Part shown: positions 16,069-41,351 of the stretch, one piece after another
Layout of the letters: each line of letters starts with the position of its first letter
How positions within the stretch are numbered: position 1 is the first letter of the stretch
Assembly: GCF_003334255.1 (NCBI RefSeq)
Contig: NZ_QOWU01000002.1
Origin: Escherichia coli
GTDB taxonomy: Bacteria > Pseudomonadota > Gammaproteobacteria > Enterobacterales > Enterobacteriaceae
Reading direction: 5' to 3' (one strand)
Length of the DNA stretch: 64,000 nucleotides
The notes under the pieces: model-generated
Seen by the model: only the letters and a program-made list of their open reading frames with translations
Told to the model about the DNA's origin: nothing
The model's database searches: none
Program-made: the position numbers and the translations under genes

Positions 16069-16160
16069 GCCGGATGCGGCGTGAACGCCTTATCCGCCCT
16101 ACGCGGTTCTGGCACATTTTGCAGGCCTGATAAGACGCGGCAAGCGTCGCATCAGGCATG
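16069..16160. repeat. REP pair (BIME-like) between convergent araJ and mak
   Basis: GCCGGATGCGGCGTGAACGCCTTATCCGCCCTAC and inverted GCCTGATAAGACGCGGCAAGCGTCGCATCAGGC, matching the REP consensus. Confidence 0.75.
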
Positions 16161-25588: not shown

Positions 25589-25849
25589 TTACTGACGAGG
25601 ATGCTTCAATAACTTCTTTACGTAATCGCGCAGCAGCTCCGTATCGTCGTCAGGAATGCTGGCATCGGGCTTTACCTCGTACAGCGCCCCCTCTACCTGA
25701 TCAATCAACCGCTGTTGGTCATTTTGCGCCATATTGCGAAGCATTGCAGTGACGATAATCTCCAAAGCTTCTACCTGCGCACACAGTTCTTTCGACTCTT
25801 CTTCTTTTTGGGCAAGCTTAAATAACAACTCAGCAATGAGATTTTTCAT
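25589..25849 (-). CDS. iraP: Anti-adaptor protein IraP (RpoS stabiliser)
   Basis: 86-aa [42 protein letters not shown]. Confidence 0.9.
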
Positions 25850-26311
25850 GTCTGTATTTCCTTATCCAAAGTATGGAGAAGTTAACATTATGTTTCACAA
25901 CTTCATAGTGTCTGGAAGTATTATTTTTATGACAAAGGAAATACTTTGCGCAAATATTTTTTGTTTGATTACCAGCGAAACGTTTCTCTTATTTAAATAA
26001 TTACCCACACAAAATATAGGCTTTTAATTATCAACCTTTATTATAAATAAAAGTTATGAAATATATTCTCTTCGTTAACTTATAATTAAGAGAAAAAAAC
26101 TCACCGCATGGCCATTTAAGCCAGGAATAAATTAGCTTCCCGTTCATCATTTTTGTGATCTTGCGCACATCTTTGAGATAACGCACTTTCTTCACCAGTA
26201 CGTTGCACGCTTTGTCAGCAGAAGATTGCAACAATCTTTCAGAAGGCCGCGAATCCCCCGTTTTGTCGTGGTAATGTATGCACTTTGTGTTAGACGGGAT
26301 AGGTTTTTAAG

Positions 26312-32105: not shown

Positions 32106-32794
<689 letters not shown>

Positions 32795-32795
32795 T

Positions 32796-35717
<2,922 letters not shown>

Positions 35718-36240
35718 TTGTCATCCCTCCTCAGGGACGTAATAAGTTGATCCATCAATTATCAATGCATAGAAAACATATTATGTTTCGCGCTAACGAT
35801 TATGCTGCGTTACAGACGAATGGTTCAATTATTCTTTCCCCTAAGTCCGAATGTGGACATATATAATTTATGGAGAAAAACACGCATCAAATTCATAAAA
35901 GCACAGTATTTCAACATATTGCAGATAATTTTGTTTTTGAAGCATACGCATAATAAATATCACAAACACAAACCAGATAAATATCCTATGAATATGCAAC
36001 AAAGTTTTAATTATTCAATTTATAGCAGCGCAACCAAACTCCAAAAAATAATAACCAACAGCTATAAATAAAGATTAAAAATATTTTCAGTGAATATAAA
36101 ATTATTGCTGTTTCTATTAAAAAGATGTCCTGGCCTCTCTTCCATTCTCTTCTTGTCAACATCGCGACAACTTTCGTAAAACATCCCTACCCTGCTTCAG
36201 GTATACTATGCCCCTCGATTCCACAAACATCAGGCAGACC

Positions 36241-39773: not shown

Positions 39774-40736
39774 TTATTGCACGAAGCGCGAGGTAACGTA
39801 CTGGCTGTAATCATTCGCTACAGCCGGGACCTTGCCCTGCTCTTTCAAAAACTGCGCGGTGTCGATGATCGCTTTGTTCACCGGTCCGGTCAGTTCTGCC
39901 GTTTGTTGCTGCGGCGTCAGATAGGTATTCCCCTTCACCAGCCCCGGAACGTCACCTTCAGGCACGCCGCTTAAACGCGCCAGTTTGCTGATGTTTTCCG
40001 GCTGTTTCAGCCACACGTCTGGGTTAGCAATGTACGGTTGCTGAGCATCGATGGCGCTTTTAGCGAACGCTTTCACGACCTCAGGATGTTTCTCGGCAAA
40101 ATCTTTGCGCACCACCCAGACGTCCAGCGTTGGCGCGCCCCACTGCCCGACCTGTTCAGAATCGGTCAACACCTTGCCGTCTTTTTCCAGGGCGTTAACC
40201 GCCGGTGCCCAGACATAAGCACCATCAATATCTCCCCGCTGCCAGGCAGCGATAATCGCGGGCGGCTGCAGGTTCACAATCTCCACTTGCCCGGGTTTAA
40301 TGCCCCAGTGTTTCAGTGCCGCCAGCAGGCTGTAGTGGGTGGTGGAGATAAACGGTACGGCGATGCGTTTGCCAATCAGATCTTCCGGTTTGCTGATAGT
40401 TTTCTTTACCACCAGCGCTTCGGAGTTACCCAGTTTTGACGCCAGCAAGAAGACTTCAATCGGCACCTGTTGGCTGGCTGCAACCGCTAACGGGCTGGAA
40501 CCGAGGTTGCCGATTTGCACGTCGCCTGAAGCCAGCGCCCGCACGATGCTGGCTCCGCTGTCAAACTTACGCCAGTCCACGGTTGCTCCGCTTTCTTTAG
40601 CAAAGGTGTTGTCGGCCTGAGCCACTTTCGCCGGTTCGGCTGAGGTTTGATACGCCACGGTGACGTTCACCGCCTGTGCCTGAAAAGCGATGAATGCCAG
40701 TGCGGCAAGAAGTGTGTTACGCGATGAAATTGCCAT
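39774..40736 (-). CDS. tauA: Taurine ABC transporter periplasmic binding protein
   Basis: ATG at 40736 gives 320 aa, MAISSRNTLLAALAFIAFQAQA (signal peptide); the track ORF is an extension. Confidence 0.93.
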   Translation of the reverse strand: MAISSRNTLLAALAFIAFQAQAVNVTVAYQTSAEPAKVAQADNTFAKESGATVDWRKFDSGASIVRALASGDVQIGNLGSSPLAVAASQQVPIEVFLLASKLGNSEALVVKKTISKPEDLIGKRIAVPFISTTHYSLLAALKHWGIKPGQVEIVNLQPPAIIAAWQRGDIDGAYVWAPAVNALEKDGKVLTDSEQVGQWGAPTLDVWVVRKDFAEKHPEVVKAFAKSAIDAQQPYIANPDVWLKQPENISKLARLSGVPEGDVPGLVKGNTYLTPQQQTAELTGPVNKAIIDTAQFLKEQGKVPAVANDYSQYVTSRFVQ

Positions 40737-41351
40737 GATTGTCTGCTCCCCTGTCTTGTTATGGGAGCAGTATTCAGGAATAAAAACATTCATTAAAAGA
40801 ATTAGTCGTTATCGCACAGATGATTTTATTCTTAGCAAAAAAACGGCTAAGGAAAGATTAAATATGCAATTACTCCGTTCTAACAATTGGGAAAATTACT
40901 ACACTTCATTTTAGTGATGCATAAACAACCACATTACGAGATTTATTACTTCATTATTTCTATCAATATCAATACATATAATAAAACTATTATATTCGCA
41001 TTGTATATATCACTGTATCATTCTCAATCACTCGCATATTACATTCACATAATGTATATAAACAATGCTTGTTCACAGAACATATTTTTTAAATGCAATT
41101 AATTGACAAACTAAATCACATCTAAATACAATGTATAAAACAAAATAACTATACATACCAAACATACAAACACTTAACATATGAATTGCATAGAAACATT
41201 ACCCAGTCGAACCCACGGGTCTGAAAGCCCTTGCTTTTCAGTTATTAGCAACATTTAACATTTATAAATTAACATCTGGCTGCGCCAGAGATTACGTCTC
41301 TGAGTGCATCGTTGTGCTTGTAGTATAATAAATAAAATGGAGTGTCATTAA

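Follow-up and report, generated by a model that had tools for sequence, protein, structure and literature searches.

Among the systems that resemble the tauA-yaiS region of Escherichia coli, the bgl operon is the paradigm of a cryptic operon that is silenced by H-NS and activated by insertion of an IS element; neither a nucleation motif nor DNA curvature is obligatory for H-NS binding. Promoter islands form a second related class: they are bound by RNA polymerase and form open complexes, with almost zero full-length RNA. One of the 78 islands listed by Panyukov and Ozoline, 383994_309, is assigned to yaiS(-)/tauA(+); it is H-NS-bound in all three ChIP-chip datasets compared, those of Grainger, Kahramanoglou and Oshima, and its association with foreign genes is marked in three independent predictions (PMC3661553). 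Within the same intergenic region, Shimada et al. reported a genomic-SELEX site for the RpoD holoenzyme and an H-NS SELEX site, and predicted the promoters TTGACA-18-TACAAT for yaiS and TTGAGA-16-TACAAT for tauA (PMC3946193). For tauABCD, the operon on its other flank, activation by Cbl and control by CysB are described in RegulonDB-based and LTTR reviews, both citing van der Ploeg 1997.

We analysed this intergenic region, hereafter the spacer, in a 64-kb window of E. coli DNA, by which we mean the whole stretch under study. Here, tauDCBA on the minus strand are followed by yaiS, yaiP, yaiX and yaiO on the plus strand, and then by frmR (Table 1). Between 36001 and 46633 the window shows near-complete base identity to K-12 MG1655, except that it has no IS2 in yaiX and a C at 41907. 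As the spacer itself is 100% identical between the two strains, published K-12 data apply to it directly. That the spacer is an H-NS-bound promoter island is thus real, and it is already published; as such, the finding adds nothing new to what is catalogued for the best-studied bacterium. The reading that we favour, with a probability of roughly 0.8, regards the spacer as a divergent control region of composite make-up, in which a Cbl/CysB-dependent tauA promoter is joined to an H-NS-coated, AT-rich upstream region that keeps the mobile yaiSPXO cassette quiet, by xenogeneic silencing within a promoter island. The approximately 135 bp beside tauA would comprise the promoter from which tauABCD is expressed during sulfate starvation, with Cbl as its activator and under CysB control, and the other approximately 480 bp would be the AT-rich upstream region belonging to the mobile yaiS-yaiP-yaiX-yaiO cassette. 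This yaiS-side DNA binds RNA polymerase at many promoter-like sites, among which TTGACA-N18-TACAAT is likely to be the real yaiS promoter; H-NS coats the same AT-rich DNA and would thereby hold productive transcription of the cassette at a low level.

Table 1. Features of the tauA-yaiS region and of the adjoining genes (window coordinates).
Feature	Position	Strand	Basis and remarks
tauA, 320 aa	39774..40736	-	True start 40736, not 40793; K-12 annotation
tauA-yaiS divergent intergenic region	40737..41351	.	615 bp, 30.4% GC, 100% identity to MG1655
tauA leader inverted repeat CTGCTCCC-N12-GGGAGCAG	40743..40770	-	Covers the Shine-Dalgarno sequence; within the portion common to all tauA alleles
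Allele-1 tauA promoter/activator block (predicted)	40775..40872	-	About -39 to -136 from the ATG; nearly invariant among yaiSPXO carriers
Segment confined to yaiSPXO carriers, 3,874 bp	40775..44648	+	Junctions 40774/40775 and 44648/44649
Promoter island 383994_309	~40890-41198	.	Coordinate conversion; coincides with the GC minimum
G-free tract, 57 nt	40941-40997	+	Longest-run scan of the window
Promoter-like site TTGAGA-N16-TACAAT facing tauA	41000..41027	-	About 265 bp 5' of the ATG; own scan and RpoD SELEX
Sigma-70-type promoter TTGACA-N18-TACAAT facing yaiS	41103..41132	+	Own scan and RpoD genomic SELEX
G-free, CA-rich tract, 49 nt	41134-41182	+	Opens the predicted yaiS leader; contains the example sequence of the first-pass annotation
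Perfect TATAAT (41324-41329) and GGAG Shine-Dalgarno (41340-41343) before the yaiS GTG at 41352	41324..41351	+	Sequence
yaiS, PIG-L family deacetylase, 223 aa, intact	41352..42023	+	GTG start; protein family match
yaiP, membrane GT2 glycosyltransferase	42033..43229	+	Best NCBIfam match PgaC/IcaA, below curated cut-off
yaiX, hexapeptide-repeat acetyltransferase, intact	43207..43788	+	Protein family match
yaiO, YaiO-family outer-membrane beta-barrel	43790..44563	+	Protein family match

The first-pass annotation, made from the sequence alone, had set the left edge of the spacer at 40794, since it used the longest, over-long tauA ORF; with the start codon of the K-12 annotation, the spacer grows from 558 to 615 bp. 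Its description of the region as strongly AT-rich relative to the surroundings is confirmed by computation, as the GC content is 30.4% over 40737-41351, 29.4% over 40794-41351 and 24.8% over 40889-41198, with a core down to 24%, against 51.7% for the window. This makes the spacer the GC minimum of the entire 64 kb at both the 300-bp and the 600-bp scale, about 4.5 sd under the mean. The dinucleotide TpA occurs 11.4 times per 100 nt, compared to 4.6 in the window (2.5x), so that the spacer has the AT- and TpA-rich composition expected of a target of xenogeneic silencing by H-NS. The region had also been called full of ACATA, ATACA and TATAT motifs. The example sequence quoted for them is present, at 41154-41183, but dinucleotide-preserving shuffles reveal no excess of the motifs over composition: ATACA (4 versus 2.8 expected) and TATAT (4 versus 3.1) are not enriched in the spacer, and ACATA is marginal only (6 versus 2.8, p ~0.05).

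Converted to window coordinates, the published island occupies the GC minimum at the centre of the spacer. For this conversion we used the old tauA start, which we take to be 384,456, a value that agrees with the offset of 776 derived from the K-12 annotation. The nucleoid-protein binding that had been proposed from composition is therefore borne out by the published record, with H-NS bound to the island in all the ChIP-chip studies compared and an H-NS SELEX site in the spacer; the comparison with H-NS ChIP data that had been suggested as a check yields reported occupancy over the island, in a K-12 sequence identical to ours. Our consensus scan returned the same two promoter sites as the RpoD SELEX study, at 41103-41132 on the plus and 41027-41000 on the minus strand. 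With relaxed criteria, a crude hexamer scan (not PlatProm) counts 11 promoter-like sites per 300 bp, the fourth-highest value in the 64 kb, where the mean is 1.8 (sd 2.1). Together with the published listing, this documents the extreme density of potential start points over at least 300 bp that characterizes promoter islands, and like these, the spacer adjoins horizontally acquired genes. Strict full promoter matches in the spacer are no commoner than in shuffles (3 versus 3.7), which marks the high site density as a by-product of AT-richness. Likewise, the high-affinity H-NS 10-mer (TCGATAAATT-like) is not enriched, the spacer containing only two matches with two mismatches, and the 10-11 bp periodicity of AA/TT, a proxy for A-tract phasing and curvature, is below that of shuffles, so that strong intrinsic curvature, which the first-pass annotation had wanted checked, is not predicted. 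Without an enriched 10-mer or phasing, the spacer seems to be a generic AT-rich H-NS substrate rather than a curved or motif-bearing nucleation site. Other AT-rich stretches in the window, at about 35230-36100, 32266-32560 and 25800-26100 (27% GC at 35821 and 25801, 36% at 32401), have 16, 13, 12 and 10 promoter-like sites per 300 bp, equal to or above the tauA-yaiS spacer; located near hemB and the ehaB/yaiT autotransporter, they may represent further regions of the H-NS or promoter-island type.

The cassette side of the spacer is variable in the population. In strains with an empty site, 164 bp replace the 3,874-bp segment; in O157-type strains another island takes its place. Of 5,420 complete E. 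coli genomes that gave a match, 4,240 (~78%) have the yaiS-side spacer, which we used as a marker for the cassette; about 3,200 of these carriers are at least 95% identical, and about 1,000 constitute an IAI39-like lineage that has diverged by ~10% and in which yaiS is a pseudogene. The empty site, in which tauA is divergent straight to frmR over 305 bp, was found in 594 of the 5,420 genomes (11%), ST131 and others. The remaining genomes include O157-type strains with another island, encoding a response regulator, a MASE1 kinase, a UhpC-like protein and an ABC transporter, as well as IS1-mediated disruptions. Among 80 species-level TauA loci, only that of E. whittamii also has yaiSPXO beside tauA, and in E. 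albertii and Escherichia sp. E1V33 the site is empty. YaiS homologues led us to this four-gene cassette in E. fergusonii, again next to tauA, and at unrelated loci in Citrobacter braakii and in one Yersinia enterocolitica assembly. Variable presence and sharp junctions are properties of a classical genomic island; no direct or inverted repeats flank the segment, there are no mobility genes among its four ORFs, and the cassette presumably spread via homologous recombination of its flanks. In every context examined, the ~400 bp 5' of yaiS have a GC content of 25-30%, and this although the DNA no longer aligns past ~20 nt outside Escherichia. AT-richness is thus a property that the cassette has kept, and not an accident of the locus.

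Some further features of the locus are recorded here in their own right. In natural isolates, independent IS1 events recur in or beside the spacer (loci L093, L094, L003 and L008), two of the four being IS1-bounded deletions that remove yaiS; the IS1 sites are at 40706-40717, at 40945-40960 and up to 42065, and comprise an insertion in the signal-peptide codons of tauA (NCTC9040) and one inside the promoter island (CM IVRI KOL-1). A poly-C tract 3' of yaiO, just within the right junction (44610-44620), varies in length between strains, with 11 residues in this window as against 10 in MG1655; in two other genomes it has 8 and 9. Directly 5' of frmR, at 44675-44727, genomes with and without the cassette have in common a perfect 19-nt inverted repeat, ATATACTATAGGGGGGTAT / ATACCCCCCTATAGTATAT, presumably the FrmR operator. 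In an empty tauA-frmR site, a REP-like element (L007:6293-6335) is situated exactly where other strains have the cassette, and related copies occur in the window at about 16118-16157, 47162-47198, 47262-47298, 49314-49353 and 49415-49457.

When K-12-type and IAI39-type E. coli, E. whittamii and E. fergusonii are compared, conservation of the spacer peaks at 40737-40856 and at 41097-41176. The latter block of ~80 bp is 85-98% identical across three Escherichia species and contains the promoter hexamers facing yaiS and the first ~40 nt of the predicted transcript; its first part, 41097-41136, is 90% and the next 40-nt bin 85% identical to E. fergusonii, compared to 42-68% for the rest of the yaiS-side spacer. 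Because it lies within this peak, we consider the near-consensus TTGACA-N18-TACAAT, which is also supported by RpoD SELEX, to be the most likely real yaiS promoter, in line with the promoter towards yaiS that had been anticipated in the spacer. Transcription from it is predicted to start near 41139-41141, resulting in a leader of ~212 nt. We considered a structured yaiS leader and rejected it, since the fold z of -0.73 is not significant. Closer to the gene, E. coli and E. whittamii share a conserved stretch formed by the last ~95 bp 5' of yaiS, with the perfect TATAAT and the GGAG. Conservation is poor in the GC-richer patch at 41200-41240. An RpoS-holoenzyme SELEX peak published at 383868 converts to ~41324, right beside this TATAAT. 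A mini-ORF of four codons, ATG GAG TGT CAT TAA (41337-41351), overlaps the yaiS Shine-Dalgarno sequence and stops directly before the GTG; it is likewise conserved in E. coli and E. whittamii.

The cassette is whole in this strain and doubly broken in MG1655. At 41907, MG1655 has a T in place of the C found here, which creates a stop at codon 186 and reduces yaiS to 185 codons, and yaiX, split by IS2 in K-12, is uninterrupted (about 43373-43378). These two lesions explain the crypticity of the operon in K-12 without invoking silencing. The first-pass annotation had suggested silencing as the reason why the operon has no known phenotype. The absence of any phenotype is not strictly correct, as a yaiS knockout has been reported as thermosensitive at 46 °C. 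That H-NS represses yaiSPXO itself is our inference. Judging by the protein families, the cassette probably makes and exports a modified polysaccharide, the NCBIfam scores of its proteins being all below the curated cut-offs.

It is also conceivable that the cassette is silenced after initiation. The yaiS leader, G-poor, richer in C than in G, unstructured and untranslated over its ~212 nt, would then be a Rho loading (rut) site, yaiS transcripts would end before or within yaiS, and H-NS would be accessory. Rho and H-NS are known to co-silence foreign DNA in E. coli, a general observation that counts in favour of this mechanism. The strand asymmetry on which it is based is what sets the spacer apart beyond its AT-richness: between 40900 and 41200, the plus strand, which is the yaiS-sense strand, contains 6% G and 18% C, and the two longest plus-strand G-free runs of the 64 kb as well as the two top-ranking 78-nt segments in C/G ratio all fall in the spacer. 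The asymmetry is retained in IAI39-type E. coli, E. whittamii and E. fergusonii, and the predicted leader is not significantly structured. However, the DNA preceding the cassette in Y. enterocolitica and C. braakii lacks the asymmetry, which in Yersinia is even reversed, and YC dimers are few in the first 68 nt. We therefore rejected a G-poor leader as a universal cassette feature; as the asymmetry is not a general property of the cassette, a contribution of Rho is plausible but weakly supported. Termination by Rho is compatible with the composite, H-NS-coated control region that we favour, and as the principal cause of silencing we regard it as unlikely.

Alternatively, the spacer beyond the tauA promoter could be functionless, its AT-richness stemming from mutational bias and relaxed selection in a decaying island, with passive binding of H-NS and RNA polymerase. 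The pentamers and promoter matches are indeed accounted for by composition, much of the spacer has diverged by 15-50% between lineages, K-12 and IAI39-type strains carry the operon in pseudogenised form, and IS1 insertions and deletions recur at the spacer. Nevertheless, the 41097-41176 block is 85-98% identical in three species and flanked by sequence that is 42-68% identical to E. fergusonii, and ~400 bp of AT-rich DNA are found with the cassette at unrelated loci even where they are unalignable. This points to selection on composition or function, and we consider an absence of function improbable. A hidden gene in the conserved core, either a small RNA or a hydrophobic 35-codon ORF running on the minus strand from 41180 to 41073 (MLSVCMFGMYSYFVLYIVFRCDLVCQLIAFKKYVL), is the least credible proposal: all five Escherichia lineages that we compared keep a related reading frame open on the minus strand, but the ATG of the 35-codon ORF lacks a Shine-Dalgarno sequence, the lineages differ, by inspection, by four nonsynonymous changes and a premature stop versus two synonymous changes, the N-terminus is different in E. 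fergusonii, the conserved part is exactly that of the promoter hexamers, a 71-aa plus-strand ORF is broken in other lineages, an Rfam scan of 40000-42200 gave zero matches at E<=1, and the current MG1655 RefSeq annotation, which includes small proteins such as ykiC, has nothing here. Without a purifying pattern of substitutions, the 35-codon ORF, which runs antisense across the block with the yaiS promoter, probably stays open only as a side effect of the conservation of that promoter. Plus-strand ORFs of 71 and 52 aa were rejected as coding, as they are not conserved.

On the tauA side, the earlier placement of a Cbl/CysB-controlled tauABCD promoter in the spacer is supported by the reviews, and the tauA-proximal ~135 bp are the best-conserved block of the spacer. 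The tauA ATG, its Shine-Dalgarno sequence GGGGAGCAG and the first codons are conserved in ~60 enterobacterial species. The Cbl and CysB sites would be located within 40775-40900 and, together with the tauA -35 region, probably within 40775-40872, and AATACT at -37 to -32 would be the -10 element; the conservation of 40775-40872 agrees with such regulation. The TTGAGA-N16-TACAAT site, ~265 bp 5' of the ATG, is not the Cbl-dependent promoter and shows no conservation in E. fergusonii. The inverted repeat in the tauA leader, a candidate regulatory RNA, has a significant fold of -14.5 kcal/mol (z -3.66) and would sequester the Shine-Dalgarno sequence. It is conserved in ~60 species, its 5' arm varying without compensatory changes, and may lie 5' of the transcription start.

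Homology between carriers and non-carriers of the cassette breaks 38 nt 5' of the tauA ATG. Beyond this point, allele 1 (K-12) and allele 2 (cassette-free E. coli) are 58% identical over the 97 bp from -39 to -135, as determined by comparing 40775-40872 of the window with L007:6176-6275, L017 and L020; over the first 300 nt of the tauA coding sequence, identity between the two groups rises to 97%. Allele 2, which has 81-86% identity to Citrobacter and 72-76% to Klebsiella, Enterobacter and Leclercia, is by these alignments the form of the tauA promoter conserved across Enterobacteriaceae. Allele 1 occurs only alongside yaiSPXO, in E. coli, E. whittamii and E. fergusonii. It is under constraint, for it hardly varies between the two cassette-bearing lineages of E. 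coli, in spite of differences of 10-50% in the remainder of the spacer. Both alleles have in common a T-run followed by CTAA, TAATTC-TTTA, and AATACTGC immediately 5' of the leader.

These comparisons suggest a reading that we offer tentatively and with more doubt than conviction, namely that the K-12 tauA promoter is not ancestral in Escherichia and instead is a diverged allele that travels with yaiSPXO and abuts H-NS-coated DNA. If true, there would be heritable differences between E. coli lineages in how sulfur starvation, H-NS or the two together affect taurine utilisation, and the positions common to the two alleles would represent the minimal contacts of Cbl, CysB and RNA polymerase. A literature search for tauA in connection with H-NS returned nothing specific, and the cassette-linked diverged tauA allele is the sole element of this locus for which we found no description in the literature; it should be of moderate interest to specialists. 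The textbook K-12 tauA promoter is the cassette-linked allele and not the family-conserved form. More generally, the locus is a clean natural case of a mobile cassette, with its own AT-rich, H-NS-recruiting upstream region, set against a housekeeping regulatory region. Strains of the K-12, O157 and ST131 types provide a natural comparison by which one can ask whether xenogeneic silencing spills onto a neighbouring core promoter, and the comparison of alleles should indicate the promoter positions that Cbl and CysB need.

Compared to known systems, the cassette resembles synthase-dependent exopolysaccharide operons of the pgaABCD type, in that it combines a GT2 synthase, with PgaC/IcaA as the best match, a deacetylase and an outer-membrane barrel in one operon. 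The likeness is a functional analogy. All its NCBIfam scores fall well short of the curated cut-offs, its deacetylase is PIG-L/BshB-like and not of the PgaB type, and YaiO is unrelated to PgaA. With bgl-type operons, yaiSPXO shares its crypticity, its relation to sugars, an AT-rich, H-NS-bound upstream region and natural IS1 insertions within that region. It differs from bgl in that two of the four IS1 events delete yaiS, and in that no downstream silencer is defined. As for the sulfate-starvation promoters under Cbl/CysB control, such as those of tauA and ssuE, the tauA-proximal block of the spacer is the K-12 tauA promoter itself, yet 5' of -38 the K-12 sequence shares no more than 58% identity with its counterpart in yaiSPXO-free E. 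coli. The closest correspondence is with the promoter islands (PMC3661553), of which the spacer is a listed member, AT-rich, dense in promoter-like sites, bound by RNA polymerase and H-NS, and located beside acquired genes. From these it does not differ in kind. To the record of this island, our analysis adds that the island proper is only the central ~310 bp of the spacer, that one of its internal promoters is phylogenetically conserved, and that the tauA promoter flanking it is a cassette-linked allele.
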